Source of the DNA: Bacteroidales bacterium
Lineage (GTDB): Bacteria; Bacteroidota; Bacteroidia; Bacteroidales; UBA3663
Direction: 5' to 3'
DNA: 64,000 nucleotides
Assembly: GCA_045640225.1 (NCBI GenBank)
Contig: JAZUEP010000136.1
Span: 13,771-77,770, forward strand
Shown one piece after another: positions 3,738 to 61,608 of this stretch. The notes beneath the pieces were generated by a model. The model searched no databases and was not told the origin of the DNA. It saw only the letters and a program-made list of their open reading frames with translations. The first letter of the stretch is position 1. Every line of letters starts with the position of its first letter. A program made the translations under genes and the position numbers.

Positions 3738-6700
3738 ATGAAACGAAAAGTATCAATCTCGATGATGGCGCTGTGTGGAGTGGCTGCGATTGCCACGGCA
3801 TACAATAGCCCACGAATCGAGGCAATGTTGCAGAACGGCCTGTCGACCGACAACGCTGCACGCAATGCCGGCAAGAAGACGATGACCGTCGTCAACCAGT
3901 CGGCACGTCCAGGAACTCGCCTCGTGCAGCCCATGGGACACAACAACACACATCGTATCGCTGCCGCACCCAACATGGCCGACAGCCTGGTGTTCTACGG
4001 TCTGAAGTACAACGACCAGGGCTACAACGACATCGCTGGCGGTCCGTACAATGTGATCGGATGGCGCGGTGCCAAGGACCAGAAGAAGTGGGACGTGTCG
4101 CCCGAGATTCAGACAGGCGCTGCTGCCTGTTATGCAAAGGGTAAGTTCTATACCTTCGAAGCCAACGACAAGGAAGAGCTTCACATGTATACCTACGATG
4201 CCGAAACATGGAAGCTGGAATCGGACGACATCGTGGCCACCTCAGGCGTCCTGCGCCAGGTAGCTGCCTATAACCCTACGAACGGCAAGGCCTACGTCAT
4301 GGCATGGGGTGACCTGGACTGGGACACATGGGTAACGATGCGCCCAATCTTCGAGGTTGACCTCGAGGCCAAGAGCGCACACGAGATTGGCGGCCGCCTG
4401 GAGCAGCTGTTCATCCAGACAATGTTCTTCGACAACGAGGGCCAGTGCTATGGCATCCCTTACAACGAGAACGAGCTGTACAAGATCAGCCTGGAGGACG
4501 CCTCGTACGAGAAGGTCTGCGACCTGGACCTGCCCTTCCCTAAGACGGCACATTCGATGTCGGCCGTAACGGATCCGGTCACGAACCTGACCTACTGGGC
4601 CGTACCAAGCAACGAGACGAGCGAGAACTTCGGTCACTCGTACCTCTATACCATCGACCGCCAGACCGGCCACTGCGAGCTGGTAGGCCAGCTGCCTAAC
4701 AACGAGCACGTGCTGGGCCTCTACCTGAAGTATGCCGAGCCAGCATCGCCAGCCGCTGCCAGCAACTTCGGCTTTGCCGACGGACAGCTGACCTTCACGG
4801 TGCCGACCACCACCTACTGCTCGGGCGAGGAACTGAGCGACGAGTTGAAGGCCTGCATCGTAATTGACGGTGGCGAAGAGGAACAGTATACCGTCGAGCC
4901 AGGCCAGACGGCCAGCATCGCCATGGAACTGAGCGAGGGCTTCCATCAGTTCAACGTACGCATCAGCAATGCCGCCGGACACGGTGCAGAGCGCGTATTC
5001 GACGCCTTCGTGGGCAATGACGCTCCATCGGCCTCGACCGACGTACAGCTCGAGATCGTGGACGGTGTAGCCACCCTGACCTGGAAGGCCGCAACGACCT
5101 CGGTGAACGGTGGCCCATACGACGACGCATCGGTACACTACACCATCACCCGCTACCCTGAGGACATGGTAGTAGCCGAGGGCCTGCAGGAGACCACCTA
5201 TACCGAAGCCGTGAGCGATGCGCGTGCACACTATCAGTACAAGGTAACCGCCTTTGCAGGCGAGACCGAGGGCGAATCAGCCCTGTCGAACGAGGTAGCC
5301 TATGGCTCGGTATGGTACGCACCTTATACCGAGGAATTCAAGTATGATTCTGACTTTGCCACCTTCAAGATCCACGACGGACGCGGCGATGATCACAACA
5401 CGCCTGACCAGAGCACCTGGTGGTGGCTGGAGTCGCAGCAGAAGGCATACCTGTCGGGTTGCGGCTCATGGAATCCTGACTTGGGCGAGTTTGGCGGCTA
5501 CGGCATGGACGACTGGCTGATTTCGCCAGCCATCGCACTGAAGGCCGGTCAGGACTATCGCGTACGTTACGACTTCGAGGCCATCAGCGTGCCTGAGCAC
5601 CTGGAGCTGTACCTGAGCAAGGGCACTGACGTGGACGGCGAGTTGACCCTGCTGAACGAGGCCACCATCAGCTGGGAGGACGAATCGACCTGGAAGCGTT
5701 GCGAGATCTTCAGCGTCGAGGAAGACGGTCTGTATCACCTGATGTGGCGCGACAATACCCCGGTAGCCAGCTATAGCCTGATGCTGGACAACATTCGCTT
5801 CGACGTCTATGCCAACTATGAGGCACCTGCCGCAGTAGCCGAACTGACCGCAACCGCTGCAGAAGGCACCGCCCTGGAGAATACCCTGACCTTCACCGCT
5901 CCGACCCAGACCTACAAGGGCGAGACCCTGAGCAACATTGAGCGCATCGACATCTACCGCAACGGCAGCCGCAAGGCCACTTATACCTTCGAGTCACCAG
6001 CACCGGGCGCACAGCTCGCATGGACTGACACCGAGTGCGGCAACGGTATGAACGAGTACCGCGTCGTGGCCTACAATGCAGCAGGCCAGGGCCAGGAAGC
6101 CGTGATCAGCAACTGGGTAGGCCTCGACATCCCTGCACAGGTAGTGCTGACCAGCTACTACATGAACGACCAGAACCAGGCCGTCGTAAGCTGGGAGGCT
6201 GTAGGCAACCGCGGCATCCACGGTGGCTTTGTCGATCCGACGGACGTCACCTATTCGCTGTGCTGCTACGAGGAGTGGAACTGGGATGATCACTGGCCAG
6301 CCGTCAAGCAAGGCCTGACCGAGACCACCGCTACCGACGACGTAACCCAGATGTGGTGGCAGGACATGAAGAAGTACCTGGTACGCGCCACGAATGCTGC
6401 CGGCACCAACGACGGCACCCAGTTCGCCATCGCTCTGGGCGACGCTTATCAGACGCCATTCTGCGAGTCGTTCGCATGGGGCTTTGCTGGCAATTCGCCA
6501 TGGACCCTGTTCGCCGATTCGTACTACTATGCCTGGAACATCACCGACGGCTCGGGCATGGCCGTAAAGCCATACGATGACGACAACGGCATGTTGAGTT
6601 GGCAATACATCCAGGACGAAAGTAATACCCAGCGCATGCAGGGTCCACGCGTATCGATCGTAGATCTGGAGCAGCCAGAGCTGTCGTTCATGATGTGGCA

Positions 6701-26760: not shown

Positions 26761-27852
26761 CTATAGGGCGAAACTGTTGACGGCTTCGATGACCATCTCT
26801 ACTTCGGCATCGGTCATTGTCTGGTTACAAGGCAACGAAAGCTCCTGTGCGGCAATGCGTTCGCTGATGGGGAAATGCAAGTGCTGCCACTCGCTGTAGG
26901 CCTGTTGCTGATGTGGAGCAATCGGGTAATGGATCTGCGTCTGTACGCCCTTGGCTGTCAGATGCTGCTGAAGGGCATCACGATCGCTGCAAAGTACCGG
27001 ATAGATGTGGTAGACGTGATGAATCGTATGAGCAACCGGCAACTTCACCAACGGATTCTGAATCTTCGAAGCATAACATTCGGCAATCTCACGACGTCGC
27101 TGGTTCGTGGCATCAAGGTCGCGCAACTTGATGCGAAGCACAGCCGCCTGTAGTTCGTCCATGCGCGAATTACAACCCTTATAACGATTCACGTACTTGC
27201 GTTCCGATCCGTAGAACGCCAGCTGACGAATCACCTCGACAAGGCGCTTGTCGTCCGACGTCACAGCACCGGCATCGCCCAGGGCACCGAGATTCTTACC
27301 GGGATAGAAGCTCCATGCGCACGTACCTTCCACCGGTATGCCATGGCACTGAGCCGCATCCTGCAACACCTGAAGGCCATAACGAAGCGCTACGGCATTG
27401 AGGGCCGACATGTCGCATTGCTGGCCATAAAGGTGCACGGGCAAGAGAGCCTTGATCGGATGATCGGCATCGGACCGGCGAATGGCCTCCTCGACATTGC
27501 GCGCATCCAGCAGGAAGGTATCAGGATCTGGTTCGACAGGAACCGGCACCAAGCCATTGTCGCTCACTGCCAGAATCGAGGCAATATACGTGTTGGCCGG
27601 TACTATCACGCCATCGCCAGGATGCAGCAGACCCATCTCGATCCAGGCACGAAGCACGAGGCGAAGCGCATCCAGGCCATTGGCACAAGCCACGCAATTG
27701 CGGGCATTGTTATAGGTGGCCCATTCCTGTTCGAAGGCTGTCACCTGACGGCCGAACAGATACCACCCCGAATCGACCACATCGAGCAGTGCCTGCTTGA
27801 TATCGGCCTCATAAGGGGCATTCAGACGATGAAGATCAAGGTAGGGAAGCAT
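26761..27852 (-). CDS. DegT/DnrJ/EryC1/StrS family sugar aminotransferase (FdtB/QdtB/WecE-like)
   Basis: MLPYLDLHRLNAPYEADIKQALLDVVDSGWYLFG, FYPGKNLGALGDAGAVTSDD (the PLP-lysine region) and NSRMDELQAAVL. Confidence 0.9.
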   Translation of the reverse strand: MLPYLDLHRLNAPYEADIKQALLDVVDSGWYLFGRQVTAFEQEWATYNNARNCVACANGLDALRLVLRAWIEMGLLHPGDGVIVPANTYIASILAVSDNGLVPVPVEPDPDTFLLDARNVEEAIRRSDADHPIKALLPVHLYGQQCDMSALNAVALRYGLQVLQDAAQCHGIPVEGTCAWSFYPGKNLGALGDAGAVTSDDKRLVEVIRQLAFYGSERKYVNRYKGCNSRMDELQAAVLRIKLRDLDATNQRRREIAECYASKIQNPLVKLPVAHTIHHVYHIYPVLCSDRDALQQHLTAKGVQTQIHYPIAPHQQQAYSEWQHLHFPISERIAAQELSLPCNQTMTDAEVEMVIEAVNSFAL

Positions 27853-27859
27853 CCTTTAA

Positions 27860-27901
27860 AATTACGAATTACAAATTACGAATTACGAATTACGAATTAC
27901 G
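27860..27901. repeat. Six tandem heptamers (AATTACG)n in an intergenic spacer
   Basis: AATTACG AATTACA AATTACG AATTACG AATTACG AATTACG, lying between the stop at 27923 and the start at 27852. Confidence 0.9.
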
Positions 27902-29376: not shown

Positions 29377-31023
29377 CTATCGCTTCAGCCATCGCTCAGG
29401 GTTCTGGGCGGTAGACTTGTGGTAGATCCAGAAGCGAATCTCGGCACGATTGCCGTCTGGCTCGGTCTTCAGCGTTCCTAACTGCTGGCGAGTCGAAACC
29501 TTCTGGCCGGCCTTTACCGTGACATTGCGTAGGTTCATGTACACCGAACGGTAGTCGCCATGCTGTACGATGACGGTCCATTCCTCGGACGATGAGAAGC
29601 AGCTCTGTACCACACCGTCGTAAACCGCACAGGCATGCGTTCCGGCCTTGGTGCTCAGCACGATGCTCGAATTGCCGTTACCTGACTGATTGAAATGATC
29701 GACAAAGGCAAAGCTGGCATCCACCGGATAAGGCAGACGGCCCTTGTTGCTGGCAAAGCTACCCGACAGGCGACGATAGCTGTCGTCCACGCTCACCTTG
29801 GCGTTGCTGTGGCTGGTAGACCGGCTTGAAGAGCCTTCGCTGGCATCCTGACCCTTGCTGTCGGTCTTGCCTGTAGCGGGCTTCTTGCCGTCGCTCTTAC
29901 CATTGTTCTTCTCCTTGCGACGGGCTTCTTCCTCGGCCCTACGCTGTGCTTCCTCGGCCTTTCGCACCTCTTCTTCGATCATGCGCTGTATGGTCTTCTC
30001 GACCTCGGCCATACGCTGGCGATCACGATCGAGCTCACCCTGCAGCTCCTTGTTGCGCTTCTGCAGCTGAGCCAGCTGGTTCTGCTGTTCCTGCTGACGA
30101 TGAGCCAGGGCTTTCTGCTCGCGATCCATGTCAGACAACTTCTGCTCGCGATCCTGACGGGTCTGCTCGACGGCAGCACGGGCCTTATCCAGCTCGGTTC
30201 GCTGCTGGTCGAGGTTGGCTGCCTGCTCCTTGCGCCAGTCGCCATACGAACGGAGGTACTTCAGGCGACGAAGGCCTTCGAACAGGTCCTTGGCCGATAT
30301 GACGAACAGTAATTCGTTGTAGCCGCTGCGCCACTTATACATATGGCGCATGGCCGAGGCATATTTATCCTTCGTGGCGCTGTGTTCCTTCTCCAGCCTG
30401 CGGATCTCGCCCTTCAGGCTGTCCTCTTCGGCAACGAAGGCGTCAATCTCCTGTTGCTGGCTGTTGATCAGGGCCTGACGCTTACGGATCTCGTCCTCGC
30501 GAATGCGGAGGTCGCGGCTCTGACTACGCACGCTCTGGTTGTTGCTGTTGATCAAGGCTTCGGTGTCCTTGATCTGTCGCTGCAGGTCGCGCTGCTGCTT
30601 CTCGTAGGCCTGACGCGACATGGGCTTCTGCTGTTTCTTGCTGCTGTTGCCCGATGTCTTCTTGCTACTTTGTGTGGTCGACTTGTTGCTCGAGGTCGAC
30701 GATTGTTTCTTCTGCGTCGTGGTCGACTTCTTCTGTGTCGAGGCTGGTTTCTTGGTGTTCGACTGCGGTGTAGACTTCTTCTGAGTCGTGGCCGGCTTCT
30801 TCTGGTTGGCAGCCGGCTTCTTTTGCGTCGATTGCTGTGCCGGCTTCTTTTGCGTCGAGGCAGGCTTCTTGGCCGGTGCGGTCGACGTAGTTTTCTTCTT
30901 CGTTCCCTGCGTCTGGCTGGTCGGTGTCGAGGCCTTCTTCTGTGCCAGGGCCGCATCGGTCGGCGCTGCCATCAGCAGTGCCATCAGCAGTATTCCTATC
31001 AGGTGTCGCAATAGACCTCGCAT
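29377..31023 (-). CDS. M23 peptidase-domain, EnvC-like murein hydrolase activator with a long K/T/S/Q-rich linker
   Basis: Order of elements: signal peptide, about 105 aa of QKKP/STQKK repeats, a coiled coil (QRDLQRQIKDTEALI..., ELQGELDRDRQRMAEVEK), then a C-terminal LytM/M23-like VIVQHGDYRSVYMNL....GQKV...Q.LG. Confidence 0.8.
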   Translation of the reverse strand: MRGLLRHLIGILLMALLMAAPTDAALAQKKASTPTSQTQGTKKKTTSTAPAKKPASTQKKPAQQSTQKKPAANQKKPATTQKKSTPQSNTKKPASTQKKSTTTQKKQSSTSSNKSTTQSSKKTSGNSSKKQQKPMSRQAYEKQQRDLQRQIKDTEALINSNNQSVRSQSRDLRIREDEIRKRQALINSQQQEIDAFVAEEDSLKGEIRRLEKEHSATKDKYASAMRHMYKWRSGYNELLFVISAKDLFEGLRRLKYLRSYGDWRKEQAANLDQQRTELDKARAAVEQTRQDREQKLSDMDREQKALAHRQQEQQNQLAQLQKRNKELQGELDRDRQRMAEVEKTIQRMIEEEVRKAEEAQRRAEEEARRKEKNNGKSDGKKPATGKTDSKGQDASEGSSSRSTSHSNAKVSVDDSYRRLSGSFASNKGRLPYPVDASFAFVDHFNQSGNGNSSIVLSTKAGTHACAVYDGVVQSCFSSSEEWTVIVQHGDYRSVYMNLRNVTVKAGQKVSTRQQLGTLKTEPDGNRAEIRFWIYHKSTAQNPERWLKR

Positions 31024-31065
31024 CGTCGTTATCTGTAATTAGTAATTCTGGTCACCGCCAGTTCA

Positions 31066-31121
31066 GTAATTCGTAACTCGTAATTCGTAATTAAGAATTC
31101 GTGATTATGAATTCTTAATTC
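31066..31121. repeat. Eight degenerate heptamers (GTAATTC-like), the opposite orientation of the AATTACG family
   Basis: GTAATTC GTAACTC GTAATTC GTAATTA AGAATTC GTGATTA TGAATTC TTAATTC. The last unit overlaps the stop codon at 31120-31122. Confidence 0.75.
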
Positions 31122-31980: not shown

Positions 31981-33906
31981 TTATTTCAATAGCAGCTCGG
32001 CGCTGTCAATCTTCTTCTGTATCATTTCGGGATCGTCGCAATCGGTGCAGTTCAATGCCTTGCGCCACTGTTCGGCGGCTCCCTTCAGGTCATTGTTCTT
32101 CACCAGCATGTCGCCAAAGTGATCGTAGAGCGTGCAATTGTCCGTATCGCCTTCAGGCAGGCAGTCGACGGCATGCTGCTGATAGAAGGTCGCCAGCATC
32201 GACTGTCCCTCGAGGTGCAGAATCCAGGCGTAGGTATCGAGGTAGGTAGGATTGTCGGGATACTTCTGTATCACCTTCAGGGCCATCTGTTCGGCCTTCG
32301 ACAGGTCCTTCTGTGCCTCGCTCAGGTAATAGGCATAGTTGTTCAGGGCCGCATAGTTCGTAGGATTATACTTCACGGCCTTCTCGTAGCATTCCCAGGT
32401 CTGGTCGAGCGAATCCAGCTGATAATAAATGTCGCCCATGTTGCCCCACAGCTGGCTCACCTTGTTGGCATCGGGTGGCGTCATGTTCTCGATGGCCCGT
32501 CGGTACTGGTCGATGGCTTCGGTCTTCTGCTCCATGTTCAGGTAGGCCCAAGCGGCTACCAGATAGGCTGTCTGGCATGTAGGATGTGCCTCGTGCACCT
32601 CGTCGGTCAGGACGACGATATCGGGCTTCGACATCCAAGCCGTGGCGTAAACCAGCATCTGTTCCCAATAGTCCTGCGACGTTGGCTTCAGGTCAACGGC
32701 AAAGCGCATGCATTCCGTTGCCAGGCTGTCCTGTCCCATGGCGTGACGCCATTGTGCCTGCAGCTCGTACACGCCATCCGCAGCCGGATGCATCGTAGCC
32801 ACTTCGGTGAAGAGCGAGTCGACATTGCGGAACAAGGCCATCGTATCGAGGCTGGTGTAGATGGATCCCTTCTCGACCTGCTCGCGATATTGCGACAGCT
32901 TGCGGTACGAACCCTTCAGATACTCCATCATCACGTCTACCTTCGTCTCCACGTCGAGGTTGGCATTAGTCAGGGCCGAAGCCACCAGCGTATCGGCAGC
33001 CAGCTGATCGCCTATCATGCTGTAGTAGTTGGCCTGTGCTACCCAGACGTAGGCGTTGTCCGGATCGATGGCCGCAGCCTCGTCGTAGGTCTGCTTGGCC
33101 TGCGGAATCTGTCCGTTCTGCATCTGCAGGTTACCCAGCTGGATGCGATGCTGCATGTTATAGGGATAGCGAGCAATGAGCTTACGATACTCGTCCAGGC
33201 CCTCCTCGGCACGACCATTGTCCTGCAGGATGCCGAACTTATATTGCGTCAGCTGCGGGCTGATGCCTTCAAGCTCCTCCAGGCGGTTCAGCATCTTCAG
33301 GCACAGGTCGATGCTGTCCAGTCGCAGGTAGATCTCGCTCATGTTGTACAGCGGTTCGCTCTTCTCAGGATACTGACGGACCAGACGTTCGTAGCAGACA
33401 CGTGCATCGTCGATACGCTTCAGCACCAGAAAGAGGTTGCCGGCTGCCTCGGTGTACCAGTAGTTCACCGAATCGATGGCCACGGCACGCTCGATGGACA
33501 GAATCGTCTGCAGCGCGTTGTTCTGACGACGATACTGATTGCTCAGCCAATAATGGGCGGCGGCCAGGCCAGGGACCTGACGCGTCGAAGGCACGCGCTG
33601 TCCCTTGCCGAGGGGCTTGGGAGCTTCGGATGGGAAATGCAGGTTGATGACGTACCCCAGGGGTGACATCAGCGAGTCGTAGAAGGATGTGGCCTCGGTC
33701 ATCACCGCGATGGCCGAATCGGCCAGGCCACGCTGGTTGAGGGTAATGGCACGGAAATAGAGCGAATCGAACACCTGCTGCTGATCAAGCGTCAGGATCG
33801 ACGTCTCGTCCGCGGTCGCTGCCTTGCGTCGGCGTGCCATCAACGCGGATGGCAACATCAGGGTCACGACGACCAACAGGATTATATATTGGCACGAATG
33901 GCGCAT
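31981..33906 (-). CDS. Tetratricopeptide repeat protein
   Basis: 641 aa with a signal/anchor segment. There are many 34-aa TPR-like units (W..LG..Y....D.A...YEKA...NP.N). Confidence 0.8.
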   Translation of the reverse strand: MRHSCQYIILLVVVTLMLPSALMARRRKAATADETSILTLDQQQVFDSLYFRAITLNQRGLADSAIAVMTEATSFYDSLMSPLGYVINLHFPSEAPKPLGKGQRVPSTRQVPGLAAAHYWLSNQYRRQNNALQTILSIERAVAIDSVNYWYTEAAGNLFLVLKRIDDARVCYERLVRQYPEKSEPLYNMSEIYLRLDSIDLCLKMLNRLEELEGISPQLTQYKFGILQDNGRAEEGLDEYRKLIARYPYNMQHRIQLGNLQMQNGQIPQAKQTYDEAAAIDPDNAYVWVAQANYYSMIGDQLAADTLVASALTNANLDVETKVDVMMEYLKGSYRKLSQYREQVEKGSIYTSLDTMALFRNVDSLFTEVATMHPAADGVYELQAQWRHAMGQDSLATECMRFAVDLKPTSQDYWEQMLVYATAWMSKPDIVVLTDEVHEAHPTCQTAYLVAAWAYLNMEQKTEAIDQYRRAIENMTPPDANKVSQLWGNMGDIYYQLDSLDQTWECYEKAVKYNPTNYAALNNYAYYLSEAQKDLSKAEQMALKVIQKYPDNPTYLDTYAWILHLEGQSMLATFYQQHAVDCLPEGDTDNCTLYDHFGDMLVKNNDLKGAAEQWRKALNCTDCDDPEMIQKKIDSAELLLK

Positions 33907-33985
33907 CTTGTTCGAGAAGGATGATTATCGACGATTAAACAGGATGGAGAAAATTCCAACGCATTATTTAATTAAATAACGGGCG

Positions 33986-33993
33986 CAAATATA
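33986..33993 (-). promoter_or_regulatory. -7 promoter box (TATATTTG) for the TPR operon
   Basis: Plus strand reads CAAATATA, 79 nt upstream of the ATG at 33906. Confidence 0.4.
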
Positions 33994-34176
33994 ATAATAA
34001 AAATCGAATTAAGCAAATCACGCCCCATTTTTTTACATTATTTTACCTAATCCCTTCCCTCTCGGCCATCAAACCATGGTTCCTCGTTTTGTTATTATGT
34101 GTTTAGCAGGGATGGAGGCCCTTCGTCATCGTGTTCTTCCTTGCCGTGTTTTTCACAAAATGCTTCCTCGTTTTGT

Positions 34177-34445
34177 GGAAGAGCATTCCGGAAGAAAATT
34201 GCACTTCCCCGTTTCGCGGAAGAGCATTTCGGAAGAAAATTGCGCTTCCCCGTTTCGCGGAAGAGCATTCCGGAAGAAAAATGCGCTTCCCCGTCGCGAG
34301 GAAGAGCATTCCGGAAAAAAAATGCGCTTCCCCGCCGCGAGGAAGAGCATTCCGGAAGAAAAATGCAGCTCGCCCGTTGCGAGGAAGAGCATTCCGGAAG
34401 AAAAATGCGCTTCCCCGTCGCGAGGAAACGCATTTTACGAAAAGA
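34177..34445. repeat. Tandem array of a 41-bp hairpin-forming unit: 6 full copies plus degenerate flanking copies
   Basis: Units start at 34177, 34218, 34259, 34300, 34341, 34383 and 34424 (spacing 41,41,41,41,42,41). The consensus is GGAAGAGCATTCCGGAAGAAAAATGCGCTTCCCCGTCGCGA. There are no unique spacers. Confidence 0.95.
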
Positions 34446-34470
34446 TCGGATCGAGCCGCAATGTGGGCGA

Positions 34471-35304
34471 TCAGAGCAGTGGCTTGAGGCACTCGGCCAT
34501 TTCGGCAGCGACCTTGGCAGCCTCCTGACCGGCAACGGCCGCAAAATTCTCGCTATGGTCGGCATAGATGATGGCACGGCTGCTGTTGACGATGAGGCCA
34601 CACTGGCTGTTCATACCATACTTCACCACTTCCTGCAGCGAACCACCCTGAGCGCCGATGCCCGGCACGAGGAGGAACGAATCAGGTGCGATGCGACGGA
34701 TATCCTCGAACATCTGGCCCTGGGTAGCGCCAACTACGAACATGATCTGATCCTCAGTGCCCCAAGTCTTCACGGTGCCCAGCACCTTCTCGAACAAACG
34801 CGTCTCGGTGCCGTCGATGGTGCAGAGCTGGAAATCGTGGCTACCCTTATTGCTGGTCAGTGCCAGACAGATAACCCACTTTCCGTCGTAGCCAAGGAAT
34901 GGCTTGACCGAGTCCTCGCCCATGTAAGGAGCCACGGTAACGGCATCGAGGTCCATGTGCTCGAAGAACGAGCGGGCATAGAGCATCGAAGTGTTGCCGA
35001 TATCGCCACGCTTAGCATCAGCGATGATGAACTGATTCGGGTAGTTTGTGCGGATGTAGTTGACGGTCTTCTCGAAGGCAATCCATCCCTCCACACCGAA
35101 GCACTCGTAGAAAGCCAGGTTGGGCTTGTAAGCGATGCAATAAGGCTCGGTGGCATCGATGATAGCCTTGTTGAACTCGAAGATAGCGTCCTGAGCAGGC
35201 AGCGACTGCAGGTGCTCCGGAATCTTCTTGATGTCGGTATCGAGACCTACGCACAGGAAGGTCTTCTTGAGCTTGATTTGCTCGAAAAGTTGTTCGCGAT
35301 TCAT
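34471..35304 (-). CDS. pyrF: Orotidine 5'-phosphate decarboxylase (long, type 2 form)
   Basis: [32 protein letters not shown] and [11 protein letters not shown]. Confidence 0.9.
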
Positions 35305-38403: not shown

Positions 38404-38476
38404 AATTGTACTCTTTATATATTATATTTATAGATTTGTGACGCTCTATAGTGGCTTGATTGCCAATTAGCGGGTG

Positions 38477-40865: not shown

Positions 40866-42746
40866 TCAGCGCACAAGGATCTTCTGACCATTGACGATGT
40901 TCAGGCCTGGACGCAGCTCATGACGACGACGGCCCATGAGATCGAATACCGGAGTATCGCCATCGGGCGACAGCAGAGCATCTGCATCTGCCTCTACCCT
41001 ATCGATACCCAGTTGCTCAGGATCGAAGTTCAGTTTACGATCCATCCACGACAGACGACGCACGATGTAATCGCGCACATTACGAACCTCGGCCTCGTAC
41101 GAACCCCAGATCTTTGGATTCTGATGGACGTAGGAATTCATGATAGGCCAACGCTGGAAGTTAAGCTGTTGCGAAGCTTCGAGCTGTGCGGCATGATAAT
41201 CGACGACAGCAAGGAGCGAATCTTCGGAAAAGACGCGTGACATGCGCAGTTCGGCCCATAATTCTTCGAGCTGCCGGAGCGCTGCATCGTCGTGCTTGAT
41301 GATACGATTGACAAACGAACGCATCTGACCGGCATACGAGCCACGCGAGGCGTAAATGAAGTCAGACTTCTGGCAGATGGGATAGGTACGGTTATCGTTC
41401 TCGTAGGCCAGGTCGAAGTCCCATACCGGACCGAAGTAAAAACGATCGTCCATACGAGGCTTGGTCATATAGGTACTCCAGTAAGTATCGGTATTACCCG
41501 AGAACTCACCCACCAGGAAGTGGCGTAGGAAACTATCGAGGTCGAGGTGGCTGCGATAACCGTCATCGACATCGGTGAAATTCGAGGCAAAGAGCGAGGT
41601 CTCGAGGTCGTTGAAGGCCTGACGAATGTAATTCTTTTGTACCGAAAGTATAGAATCGCTATCAGGCGACTTGATCGTGACAGGATTGCTTCGCGACGAA
41701 TAGAAGTAGCAGGGCTCGCCATTGGCATAGGCATCGACCTCGACAAAGTAACCGCCCGTGAGGTCATCGCCCGATGTACAGCGCGGATCCATCTCGTCGA
41801 TCTCCACACGTCCCTTATGGACCTCGACCTGATCGCAAAGCTGGTAACACCCTTTATATTCACCATTGAGAATGACATCGACCGCCTCGCAGAATGGCGT
41901 ATAAGGCAGACCTACACGGCGACTGAGGTCGAAGGCCAGAATGTTGCGCATCAAAGTCTTGTCGCCATAATTATTGATAAGCGTCCATTTCTTGGCCTTG
42001 GCTGGCGAGCCGAGGACGTGATGCTTCTGGTCGAACTTGATGCGATAGGGTTTCTTGGGGAAATCCTTCGAGGCATTGCCACGCAGACGGATGGTACAGG
42101 TATCGGCCAGGATCTTGGCACCTTGACGCGAGATGATGCTGACATAAGCTGACAGCTCGGTGGTCTTGTCGCGCGGAACCTCCTCGTCGGCCACATGAAT
42201 CGTGACAACAGGAAGATTCGTTGGCTGATAGAAAAGCGAATCAGTACCAGCATCCGGTAGGCCATAAAAGGCCAGTTCGGCAATATTGCAACGCGAATCG
42301 TTCGGACCTACATAACGCACGTAACGGAAGCCACGCGAGACCTCGACATCAGTATAGAACATCTCACCAGGCTTTCCTTTTGCCGTAACCAGGTAGAGGG
42401 GAACGGCATCGAGAAAATCTTCGCGATTAGCGCCTTCGAAGACGCCAAGTTCGGTGCGCTTTGGACCATTGTCAACGTTACGAGCGGCCCAGGCAAGACC
42501 GGTAACAACGCAAGGTTCGCCGAAGTCAAGGCCTACCCATCCGTATGAGCGCTGATAGGAAGCAAAGAAGGTATTGGTATCGTCGTCGAAGACTTCAGCC
42601 GGACGATTGGCCGTAGTAGACGAACGGTTGGTGGAATAGTCGTACGAGAGCTCGCTGCCGATGGGTGTACCGGTGAGGCGGGGCGACGTCTGTGCCTGCA
42701 GGCATGGGACGAGGACCAGAGCGAGGAGAAACAACAGCTGACGCAT
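40866..42746 (-). CDS. CotH family protein with an N-terminal discoidin (F5/8 type C) domain and a T9SS C-terminal domain
   Basis: The discoidin-like part is PAEVFDDDTNTFFASYQRSYGWVGLDFGEPCVVTGLAW. The CotH core is GNTDTYWSTYMTK...FYFGPVWDFDLAYEN. The tail is ...VFDLMGRRRHELRPGLNIVNGQKILVR. Confidence 0.8.
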   Translation of the reverse strand: MRQLLFLLALVLVPCLQAQTSPRLTGTPIGSELSYDYSTNRSSTTANRPAEVFDDDTNTFFASYQRSYGWVGLDFGEPCVVTGLAWAARNVDNGPKRTELGVFEGANREDFLDAVPLYLVTAKGKPGEMFYTDVEVSRGFRYVRYVGPNDSRCNIAELAFYGLPDAGTDSLFYQPTNLPVVTIHVADEEVPRDKTTELSAYVSIISRQGAKILADTCTIRLRGNASKDFPKKPYRIKFDQKHHVLGSPAKAKKWTLINNYGDKTLMRNILAFDLSRRVGLPYTPFCEAVDVILNGEYKGCYQLCDQVEVHKGRVEIDEMDPRCTSGDDLTGGYFVEVDAYANGEPCYFYSSRSNPVTIKSPDSDSILSVQKNYIRQAFNDLETSLFASNFTDVDDGYRSHLDLDSFLRHFLVGEFSGNTDTYWSTYMTKPRMDDRFYFGPVWDFDLAYENDNRTYPICQKSDFIYASRGSYAGQMRSFVNRIIKHDDAALRQLEELWAELRMSRVFSEDSLLAVVDYHAAQLEASQQLNFQRWPIMNSYVHQNPKIWGSYEAEVRNVRDYIVRRLSWMDRKLNFDPEQLGIDRVEADADALLSPDGDTPVFDLMGRRRHELRPGLNIVNGQKILVR

Positions 42747-42781
42747 TGCTTAGGAGAATTACGAATGACTAATTACGATTA

Positions 42782-44104: not shown

Positions 44105-44122
44105 ATTAATAATATAGAATAA

Positions 44123-44662
44123 TTAGAGGCAGAGGGCGCGAATCAGATGCTGAAACTCGCGATGCTCGAACTGCTCGGTGAATACCTCGCGACCCAGCTG
44201 CTGACGAAGCTCCTCGATCGTCCAGAACTTACCCTCGTCCACCTCATCGTGGTCAGGTGTAAGCTTGCCGTTATGCACAATATGGAAGGCCGTAACCAGC
44301 TCGCGCTCGCAGCTCGACTGCCAGATGTACTGATACATGAATCGTGGTTCGACGCGTAGGCGCAGGCCCAACTCTTCACGAGCTTCGCGCTTGACGGCCT
44401 CCTCGAGAGTCTCGCCGAAATCGACATGTCCGCCTACAGCCGTATCCCAGAGGCCAGGAGCAATATCCTTGGTCATAGAACGCTTCTGGAGGTAAAGACG
44501 ACCCATAAGGTCGGTGATGTGAAGATGTACAACGGGATGAAGAGCCATCGAGCCACCATGGCAATAGGCACGAGTAGCCTTGCCAACGACCTGACCCTCC
44601 TCGTTGATGATGGGAAACATCTCAGGCTTCTCTTTCTTGTCGGGGTATTGTAGTTCGATCAT
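44123..44662 (-). CDS. NUDIX hydrolase
   Basis: Nudix box GGHVDFGETLEEAVKREAREELGL. The start is set at the ATG at 44662 (MIELQYPDKK...) because the longer track ORF would run through the TATCTTTG box and into the WYL gene. Confidence 0.8.
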   Translation of the reverse strand: MIELQYPDKKEKPEMFPIINEEGQVVGKATRAYCHGGSMALHPVVHLHITDLMGRLYLQKRSMTKDIAPGLWDTAVGGHVDFGETLEEAVKREAREELGLRLRVEPRFMYQYIWQSSCERELVTAFHIVHNGKLTPDHDEVDEGKFWTIEELRQQLGREVFTEQFEHREFQHLIRALCL

Positions 44663-45732: not shown

Positions 45733-45809
45733 CACCGTCAAAACGACAAAAACGTTCAGACAAACTAAAAAGAACAATTAATAACAACCAAATAAAAAGA
45801 CAAACAATT

Positions 45810-47183: not shown

Positions 47184-48824
<1,641 letters not shown>

Positions 48825-48936
48825 TCAGCTTTCGCCTACGATTGTCAACTTGGCCATGCCATTTCGCTGTCGAAGTGGCGATAGCATCCGTCTAACCATC
48901 GACGCCACCGGAGCAGCGGATGAGTAGCAGAACAGA

Positions 48937-60690: not shown

Positions 60691-60749
60691 CGACACATCG
60701 AAGATCGAAACATCGAGACCTCGACACATCGAATAATCGAAACATCGAA
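60691..60749 (+). repeat. Direct duplication of about 27 bp inside the 5' leader
   Basis: CGACACATCGAAGATCGAAACATCGA (60691-60716) and CGACACATCGAATAATCGAAACATCGAA (60722-60749). Confidence 0.85.
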
Positions 60750-60780
60750 AAAAAATTATAAATTCTAAAAAATCCCAACA

Positions 60781-61608
60781 ATGAAAGCTTCTATCTTCGC
60801 CCTCGCCGCCTTAGGCTTGGCAGCCTGCACTTCGCAGCCACGCAACGACGCTTCAGACGCCGCTTCGCACAGCCTCGTTCTCTACTATTCGCAGTTCGGT
60901 GCCACCCGTACCGTAGCCCTCGAGCTCCAGTCGCAGGTCGGTGCCGACATCGCTCAGGTCGAGGCCACGCCTGCCTACGATGGCGACTTCCAGCAGACCA
61001 TTGCCCGTTGCCAGCAGGAGGCTGCCGAGGGCACCCTGCCCGAACTCAAGCCGCTCGACGTCGACCTGGCTCGCTACGACACCATCTACCTGGGCTATCC
61101 TATCTGGTTCGGCACCTATGCCACGCCTATCGCAGCCCTTGTCAAGCAGGAGGCCTTCGAGGGCAAGACCGTCATTCCGTTCTGCACCTTTGGTAGCGGT
61201 GGTCTGCAGGCCAGCTCGCGCCAGCTTGCCGAGGCTCTGCCTCAGGCCAACGTCCTCGAGGGCTATGGCGTCCGCACCGTCCGCGTCGAGGCTGCTCCTG
61301 CCGAGCTCAACCGCTTCCTGATCGAGCGTGGCTACAAGGCCGGCGAGATCGAGGCCCTGCCTGCCTTCATGGAGGCTCATCCCGTTACAGCCGACGAGGC
61401 TGCAATCTTCGACCAAGCCTGCAGCAGTTACCAGTACCCGATGGGCACCCCTGTCAGCGTAGCCGTCCGTGCTACCGAGGCCGCTACTGACTATCTGTTC
61501 ACCGCTGCCAGCCAGGGTCCTGACGGCCAGGAACAGACCTCCGAGGTCTATGTCACCGTAGCCAACGCTGAGGGCGCTGTGGCCGAGTTCACCCAGGTAG
61601 TACGCTAA
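60781..61608 (+). CDS. Flavodoxin-like lipoprotein with an extra C-terminal domain
   Basis: Lipobox LAACT. SLVLYYSQFGATRTVA, YDTIYLGYPIWFGTYATPI and KTVIPFCTFGSGG give a flavodoxin-fold pattern, followed by about 100 further residues. Confidence 0.65.
   Translation: MKASIFALAALGLAACTSQPRNDASDAASHSLVLYYSQFGATRTVALELQSQVGADIAQVEATPAYDGDFQQTIARCQQEAAEGTLPELKPLDVDLARYDTIYLGYPIWFGTYATPIAALVKQEAFEGKTVIPFCTFGSGGLQASSRQLAEALPQANVLEGYGVRTVRVEAAPAELNRFLIERGYKAGEIEALPAFMEAHPVTADEAAIFDQACSSYQYPMGTPVSVAVRATEAATDYLFTAASQGPDGQEQTSEVYVTVANAEGAVAEFTQVVR

Follow-up and report, generated by a model that had tools for sequence, protein, structure and literature searches.

A 41-bp array of terminator-like hairpins downstream of pyrF in an uncultured Bacteroidales bacterium: a candidate interspersed minisatellite

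[quoted passage not shown] A terminator-like hairpin is not known to form the core of their unit, and small open reading frames (ORFs) coupled to the flanking genes are present in some of them. MIRUs are minisatellites of Mycobacterium tuberculosis (PMC3635867). Repetitive extragenic palindromic elements (REPs) measure 20-40 bp, usually number >100 per genome, bear a GTAG or CGTC tag, form inverted pairs and are linked to a REP-associated tyrosine transposase (RAYT) (PMC3733652, PMC2817692). They are found in clusters with regular spacing and have been proposed to act in termination and mRNA stabilisation (PMC2817692, PMC3733652). BrickBuilt from Porphyromonas gingivalis has a 23-nt unit, a conserved leader and tail with terminal inverted repeats, and bidirectional promoter activity (PMC4596501). 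Here, we describe a tandem array of 41-bp units located between pyrF and a gene for a TPR-repeat protein. It is part of a 64,000-nt stretch, hereafter the window, of contig JAZUEP010000136.1 from a Bacteroidales bacterium (UBA3663; assembly GCA_045640225.1).

We read the array as a lineage-restricted, low-copy interspersed minisatellite of terminator-like hairpins in uncultured Bacteroidales, which probably terminates the transcription of pyrF and whose evolution proceeds by slippage and homogenisation. To this reading we assign a probability of about one half. The array is a direct tandem repeat in intergenic DNA with a unit within the 10-100 bp range, and the unit family is found at several separate loci (in different genomes or one). 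The features that define the locus are the following:

34162-34434, minus strand (the sense of the flanking genes): 41-bp tandem array, identified by Tandem Repeats Finder (TRF), in-register printing, as repeat family D1 and with a profile hidden Markov model (HMM).
34471-35304, minus strand: pyrF (orotidine-5'-phosphate decarboxylase), upstream of the array; an ORF whose homologues carry PF00215 and are named OMP decarboxylase.
31981-33906, minus strand: gene for a TPR-repeat protein, downstream of the array; an ORF that is the first in a cluster and is followed by DUF4292 and peptidase M23 genes.

According to TRF, this is the strongest single-period array of the window (34162-34434, period 41, 6.6 copies, 89% matches, 0% indels, score 390). 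In-register printing places the starts of the full units on the plus strand at 34177, 34218, 34259, 34300, 34341 and 34383 and the start of a partial copy at 34424, and both methods agree with the place and the unit starts given previously in a sequence-only reading of this DNA. All units are arranged head to tail with a start-to-start spacing of 41, 41, 41, 41 and 42. The unit at 34341 comprises 42 bp, the remaining full units 41 bp, and the array is partial at both ends. Pairwise identity among the six full units is 83-100% with a mean of 89%. A 32-mer derived from the unit matches 5 times in the window and a 20-mer 6 times (<=3 mismatches), compared to 0 in shuffles; neither this matching nor the unit profile HMM revealed a further copy in the 64-kb window outside the array. 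Units 1, 3, 4, 5 and 6 contain the palindrome TTCCGGAA, while unit 2 carries TTTCGGAA instead, and all six reading frames are open across the array, which is likewise the case for 2.8% of shuffled units. Both observations had already been made in the sequence-only reading and hold. The copy number is that of the assembly; the short-read contig of a near-identical strain, L027, ends 30 nt into the array.

On the sense strand, each unit consists of two 11-nt inverted arms, GGAAGCGCATT and AATGCTCTTCC, combined with two linkers, one of 10 nt that is T-rich and one of 9 nt. Folding is possible for either adjacent arm pair, yielding an intra-unit hairpin or a junction hairpin between neighbouring units. 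Because the two inverted arms are separated by the T-rich and the 9-nt linker, each junction is composed of a GC-rich hairpin and a U-tract on the sense strand. The intra-unit hairpin predicted previously is present: it has an 11-bp stem with one mismatch, a 10-nt loop and -12.7 kcal/mol as RNA. The junction hairpins of the minus strand comprise 11-14 GC-rich bp and a 3-nt loop, reach -16.3 to -19.7 kcal/mol and are followed by AUUUUUCUU (RNAfold). The evidence favours consecutive RNA stem-loops within the 3' untranslated region (UTR) of pyrF, as had been suggested, but the more stable hairpin, and the one that looks more like a terminator, is located at the junction (-16 to -20) and not within the unit (-12.7). 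The individual hairpins are:

34404-34434, minus strand: first junction hairpin, AAUGCGUUUCCUCG-CGA-CGGGGAAGCGCAUU, -19.7 kcal/mol, with an A-tract before and UUUCUUCC after it (RNAfold per module).
34286-34345, minus strand: two internal junction hairpins (34327-34345 and 34286-34304), CUUCCUCG-CGN-CGGGGAAG, then CGCAUUUUUU or CGCAUUUUUC, -16.3 kcal/mol each.
34369-34383, minus strand: junction hairpin of lower stability in the variant unit of 42 bp, CUCGCAACGGGCGAG then CUGCAUUUUU, -9.1 kcal/mol.
34177-34258, minus strand: the two units closest to the TPR gene, which form a second subtype; their junction loop is GCGAAACGG, their tail is AAUUUUCUU, and their hairpins are weaker (-13.7 and -13.8 kcal/mol).

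The first module begins 36 nt past the pyrF stop codon, and the minimum free energy structure of the whole region contains the same 16-bp stem. Downstream of pyrF and on the transcribed strand, a GC-rich hairpin with an immediate U-tract is found, as expected for the shape of an intrinsic terminator. Judged by this shape, the hairpin at 34404-34434 is the best candidate for the pyrF intrinsic terminator. Neither folding nor a terminator scan yielded another terminator candidate besides the array between the pyrF stop and the TPR promoter. The consensus terminator scan flagged three array junctions on the minus strand and 0 on the plus strand, where no hairpin of the array is followed by a T-run. 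The hairpins at 34327-34345 and 34286-34304 are the two top-ranked terminator-like matches of a 20-kb scan. The minus-strand folding that the sequence-only reading had proposed as a check gave a strong sense fold with a z-score of -8.9 vs -5.7 for the antisense strand.

The TPR operon has a promoter of its own:

33986-34017, minus strand: TPR operon promoter with the -33 element TTTG at 34014-34017, 20 nt spacing and the -7 box TATATTTG at 33986-33993.

The search for TAnnTTTG, the Bacteroidetes-type -7 box, on both strands between 33900 and 34500 detected only this copy on the minus strand, where it had been assigned before, and none inside the array. Since this promoter is located downstream of the array, the array lies outside the TPR mRNA. 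If transcribed, it belongs to the pyrF 3' UTR. The promoter is kept in a sister species (W 430-490 vs L028 436-495, 77% identical). Between promoter and full units, the array fades out:

34069-34176, minus strand: decayed array tail with relic units at 34153-34176 and 34069-34092 (repeat family D18).

These two relics are 84 bp apart, share 83% identity and read ACAAAACGAGGAAG and ACAAAACGAGGAAC on the sense strand; another relic, ACGGCAAGGAAG, is located between them. Decayed copies had been claimed to reach back towards 34076, which is confirmed in part only, by the relic at 34069-34092.

The following scenario would account for these data. RNA polymerase leaving pyrF would encounter the first module ~36 nt past the stop codon, followed by up to six further ones. 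Here, the transcripts of pyrF would end, with their 3' ends capped by hairpins, ahead of the separate TPR promoter. Replication slippage or unequal recombination between units may create the array and keep its copies homogeneous, and single units would experience little or no sequence constraint. We infer both termination at the array, from the shape of the modules alone, and slippage as the mechanism of array growth.

The same locus was compared in relatives. The TPR gene of the near-identical strain L027 differs from that of the window by 2.2% of its nucleotides, and in the part of the array covered by its contig, 2 differences in 30 array bases were counted vs 2 in 270 flanking bases. A sister species, represented by L028 and L029, shows the same pyrF-array-TPR synteny with a spacer of 535 bp. 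Its TPR protein is 89% identical to that of the window at the amino acid level, and four-fold-site divergence amounts to 0.41-0.44. The orthologous array has seven motif anchors at distances of 41, 41, 84, 41 and 41 bp, i.e. a strict 41/42-bp period, and the window has seven, too. L028 and L029 have equal anchor numbers. The units of the sister species are only about half alike, and TRF reports no array there. The folding z-score is -3.3 for the sense vs -1.5 for the antisense strand. Between L028 and L029, the array diverges by ~10% (central units by 15-20%) at a four-fold-site divergence of 8-13%, which is near-neutral, and the substitutions are distributed evenly across the unit columns. 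Conservation between L028 and L029 is limited to the first unit and the final two, the first and the last one diverging by 0-2%. No compensatory changes were found in the sister-species array. At L028 760-830 and L029 2732-2800, the last unit and an inverted partial copy form a 19-bp hairpin followed by UUUCGUUAUU; this segment is identical in both strains, although the units next to it differ by 15-20%, and probably represents the actual pyrF terminator of the sister species. About 70 nt beyond this hairpin, an inverted pair of DnaA-box-like motifs, ATCCACTATGTGGAT, is located.

The closest array-free pyrF relatives, L012/L013 (PyrF 94%), have a single ordinary terminator, composed of A-tract, hairpin and U-rich tail, at the corresponding position; its shape agrees with that of the array modules. 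Synteny between these relatives (4840-4951) and the window (33906-34471) breaks exactly at the array: bpMoxR-VWA-pyrF is shared upstream, and after pyrF, L012/L013 have the plain terminator and a convergent peptidase M13 gene, with no array or TPR operon. In a related species with another synteny (PyrF 93%), a different ~42-bp hairpin repeat with an 8-bp perfect stem, ACAATAGTCCGCGAGCGTACGCTGGCGGACTAAAAT..., directly follows pyrF (L001 4966-5167, L002 1595-1712, L003 1473-1674). It comprises 4.8 copies in two samples and 2.8 in another one, and at least 6 short-read contigs (among L004-L010) end inside it. Because a different repeat follows pyrF in this species, hairpin minisatellites downstream of pyrF seem to have arisen more than once in the clade.

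Homologous arrays were found at other loci. As gene callers turn arrays that are open in all frames into 'proteins', protein databases were searched with the translated array. The first matches were P0257, P0258 and P0259. Through P0258 we reached the 2-kb contig L031, in which about ten units form a 41-bp array upstream of a peptidase C10 gene. The arrays of the window and of L031 are 77% identical over 267 bp (E 2e-56), and blastn of the spacers showed that their flanks are unrelated. The L031 contig ends 145 nt before its array. An exhaustive HMMER search with the translated array yielded 25 matches, ~18 of which resemble translated arrays; in 15 of these ~18, the strongest self-similarity is found at a lag of 41 aa, which corresponds to 3 x 41 nt. 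Searches at the DNA level were less productive. The unit profile HMM revealed no array besides the orthologue and L031 in ~170 kb of related loci. The exact 26-mer had 0 matches in species-representative genomes, JGI metagenomes and viral contigs, and a degenerate 21-mer gave only single chance matches in coding regions of unrelated organisms in the same collections. Exact-pattern DNA scans fail because the family is too variable. Look-ups by exact protein sequence gave no match for P0121, P0257 or the TPR and PyrF proteins of the window. Based on sequence comparison, the array is one locus of a dispersed low-copy family with a conserved 41-nt period. The sequence-only reading had asked whether it is a dispersed REP-like family or a unique tandem repeat of variable number: L031 and the ~18 translated arrays indicate dispersal; the REP hallmarks of a tag and alternating orientation are missing. 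Among the protein matches, P0269 (383 aa, on a 682-kb contig) is the translation of a more distant repeat with a 41-nt period, and P0276 displays a repeat-plus-variable-spacer pattern like a translated CRISPR array. Public protein collections contain 'proteins' translated from non-coding tandem arrays (P0257-P0281).

Several points weigh against the proposed minisatellite of terminator hairpins. In the sister species, both stem and U-tract are gone from most units, and the hairpins retain 5-7 of 11 pairs. In L031, the gene upstream of the array lies beyond the contig end, so this second locus provides no check of termination. The terminator scan is unspecific, with 18 matches in 20 kb vs 15.4 +/- 3.6 in shuffles. 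An alignment of 24 units from four arrays, compared with column shuffles, revealed no covariation for either hairpin (73% paired cells observed vs 72% shuffled). In addition, the intra-unit hairpin competes with the junction hairpin for the same arms. If termination matters, one hairpin suffices, and the six extra copies need no function. Furthermore, the proposal does not explain how homologous arrays reached non-orthologous loci. The equal anchor number of seven in the window and the sister species could mean a constraint on array size, which the model does not predict. Similarly, the constancy of the 41-nt period across the family is not accounted for.

Some of these points would be expected if the array were a neutral or selfish minisatellite without a role. 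It would then be a slippage by-product in a tolerant, non-essential spacer, and pyrF termination would be incidental or accomplished by the first hairpin alone. The roughly neutral divergence of the sister-species array without protected columns agrees with such an origin, as do the lack of covariation, the decay of the hairpins in L028/L029, the array-free closest pyrF relative and the many unrelated tandem repeats in other spacers of the lineage. It is harder to reconcile with the maintenance of the 41-nt period in many diverged arrays, with the anchor number shared by the window and its sister species, and with a first and a last unit that are conserved between L028 and L029. A purely neutral repeat would not be expected to display such a strong strand asymmetry in its terminator shape. 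We consider a neutral minisatellite possible, albeit on the unlikely side. The constant unit length of 41 nt might alternatively be due to dedicated machinery that recognises the unit, a head-to-tail Bacteroidales counterpart of REP/RAYT or of bacterial interspersed mosaic elements (BIMEs), or to a protein that reads the 41-bp register, with the arrays serving as tunable multi-terminator insulators between operons. This idea is speculative, and we regard it as unlikely.

[quoted passage not shown] Such an element would explain why homologous arrays with unrelated flanks occupy non-orthologous loci and why the window array resembles that of L031 (77%) more than its own orthologue in the sister species (65-70%). 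An extragenic hairpin unit downstream of a gene is also typical of REPs (PMC3733652), and the Bacteroidota minisatellite BrickBuilt resides within a MITE (PMC4596501). However, the two independent loci available as DNA, the window and L031, have no leader, tail or terminal inverted repeat in common. The units are arranged head to tail, whereas BIMEs alternate (PMC2817692) and head-to-tail REP dimers are negligible (PMC3733652). No GTAG/CGTC tag is conserved: of the 6 full window units, 2 have CGTC after the stem and the remainder CGTT or CGCC, and CGTC is missing from L031. One locus was found in 64 kb, and the ~170 kb of related loci contain only the orthologue and L031, whereas REPs usually exceed 100 copies per genome. 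Neither a transposase among the 39 ORFs of the window nor a plasmid or phage match was found.

In the sequence-only reading, TTCCGGAA had been proposed as a site at which protein binds in phase with the helix. Sites spaced at regular intervals for a DNA-binding protein, e.g. a nucleoid protein, an iteron-binding initiator or a protein that regulates the TPR operon, need not involve this motif. In their favour, the period is near four helical turns and strictly kept in the decayed sister array and across the family, the most conserved columns form the block CG[GA]G[GC][AG]AG, and in both known contexts the array is located upstream of a promoter in the same orientation to the downstream gene. 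The palindrome itself does not withstand comparison with relatives, where it is not conserved: the L031 array lacks TTCCGGAA and has TTCCGAAG, CGCCAAAG and TGCCGAAC, while back-translation of P0257 gives TTGCGGAA instead in two of every three units. The near-neutral divergence of the sister-species array likewise speaks against the proposed site. The block looks conserved in the alignment, but between L028 and L029 it was substituted as often as the remaining columns (11/91 sites vs 20/196 elsewhere), so that it was rejected as a conserved protein-binding block. The distance between promoter and last full unit is ~140 bp in the window vs ~560 bp in L031. That all palindromes face one side of the helix is true only approximately: at 10.5 bp per turn, 41 bp drift by ~34 degrees per unit and ~170 degrees over five. 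No DnaA-box cluster is present near the array, and the GC skew does not switch. In sum, we find binding sites very unlikely.

A structured non-coding RNA that consists of repeated hairpins, is released from the pyrF 3' UTR and serves, e.g., as a sponge for an RNA-binding protein would suit the strong sense-strand folding (z -8.9) and the GGA-containing loops or arms of the repeated hairpins, but is highly improbable given that no Rfam family, no covariation and no internal Bacteroidetes-type promoter on either strand were found and that the hairpins were left to decay in the sister species.

Other identities were discarded. The units abut without spacers, which excludes a CRISPR array, as had been recognised before. 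A replication origin or iterons were rejected because matches to the DnaA box occur at chance level with none near the array, and cumulative GC skew has no turn at 34 kb; the AT-rich stretch near the array is the TPR promoter. No similarity to plasmids or phages was found. A coding repeat was dismissed since the period of 41 cannot be divided by 3, one unit has 42 bp, and the 'homologues' are only other arrays, none of them with a Pfam domain. The earlier statement that the array does not belong to a recognised repeat family is borne out: Rfam returned nothing at the gathering score (best 28.9 bits vs a cut-off of 97, with a eukaryotic miRNA model), and no relevant description of a 41-bp Bacteroidales repeat was found in the literature searched.

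The array is not the only tandem repeat in this DNA. Heptamer arrays fill short spacers between co-oriented genes of the window and end a few nt before start codons. (GTAATTC)6 at 27858-27901, read in the sense direction, stops ~6 nt short of the ATG at 27852; for a shorter GTAATTC copy at 42757-42777, the distance to the ATG at 42746 is ~10 nt. Between the DUF4292 stop at 31120 and the peptidase M23 start at 31023, the spacer is taken up by the inverse (AATTACG)n at 31030-31121. In L031, related GTAATTC repeats at 84-136 adjoin the 41-bp array. These arrays resemble the TAACTGA heptamer repeats that are located just upstream of start codons in Beggiatoaceae, cyanobacteria and a few Bacteroidetes (PMC4679880). 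Short tandem repeats with one unit or another are present in most of the longer intergenic spacers of the window. The octamer CGAAACAT x 7.6 at 60691-60750, ~30 nt upstream of the ATG at 60781, is the clearest case; others are located at 38415-38436, 44108-44127, 45760-45805, 48690-48716 and 48795-48833. Spacer repeats of relatives comprise L001 5962-6111 (27 bp x 5.6), L012 2715-2800 (16 or 24 bp), L029 1462-1539 (32 bp x 2.5) and L031 728-780 (11 bp x 4.8). Because tandem repeats of many unit types fill the spacers of the window and its relatives, slippage-type amplification seems to be a general habit of the lineage. The peptidase M23 ORF (29377-31023), downstream of the TPR operon, has 21-bp and 69-bp tandem repeats within its coding region (30705-30870). 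Its orthologues in L027-L030 carry related repeats of other lengths (21, 24 and 48 bp), wherefore the M23 repeats seem to represent a variable repetitive protein linker.

If the proposed reading is true, uncultured gut or rumen Bacteroidales own an interspersed hairpin minisatellite that stands beside the mycobacterial MIRUs, BrickBuilt of Porphyromonas and the proteobacterial REP/BIMEs. Such arrays break short-read assemblies, and several contigs in this study end within them. They cause spurious ORF calls, which are now 'proteins' in databases, and could be used as markers for strain typing. Furthermore, with six or seven modules of terminator shape separating a housekeeping gene from the promoter that follows, the locus is a simple natural test case for an effect of terminator copy number on read-through in Bacteroidota. 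A new class of mechanism is not opened by the array.

The known systems share different properties with the array. Like intrinsic terminators, it displays an 11-14 bp GC-rich stem, a short loop and a U-rich tail on the sense strand, tens of nt past a stop codon. In contrast to the usual arrangement of one or two terminators, six or seven near-identical copies are kept in a strict 41-bp register, and the unit recurs at other loci. With REP/BIME elements it has in common extragenic palindromic hairpin units that are mostly located downstream of genes; unlike these, the 41-bp family is head to tail, low-copy and untagged, and the window encodes no transposase. BrickBuilt is likewise a spacerless tandem repeat of Bacteroidota that is always found in intergenic regions, at several loci, including positions beside peptidase C10 genes, breaks assemblies and causes spurious ORFs. 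However, the unit described here comprises 41 bp, no flanks or inverted ends are shared between the window and L031, and the array contains no promoter motif. As in MIRUs, direct repeats are located intergenically between co-oriented genes, the family occupies several loci, and sequences differ at the strain level. MIRUs vary at this level, and for the array the strain comparison revealed sequence differences (L027) and equal anchor numbers (L028/L029). In contrast to MIRUs, the unit is centred on a terminator-like hairpin, and neither array sequence nor phylum is related. Taken together, the 41-bp array is a not previously described family within a known kind, the interspersed intergenic minisatellites and palindromic repeats.

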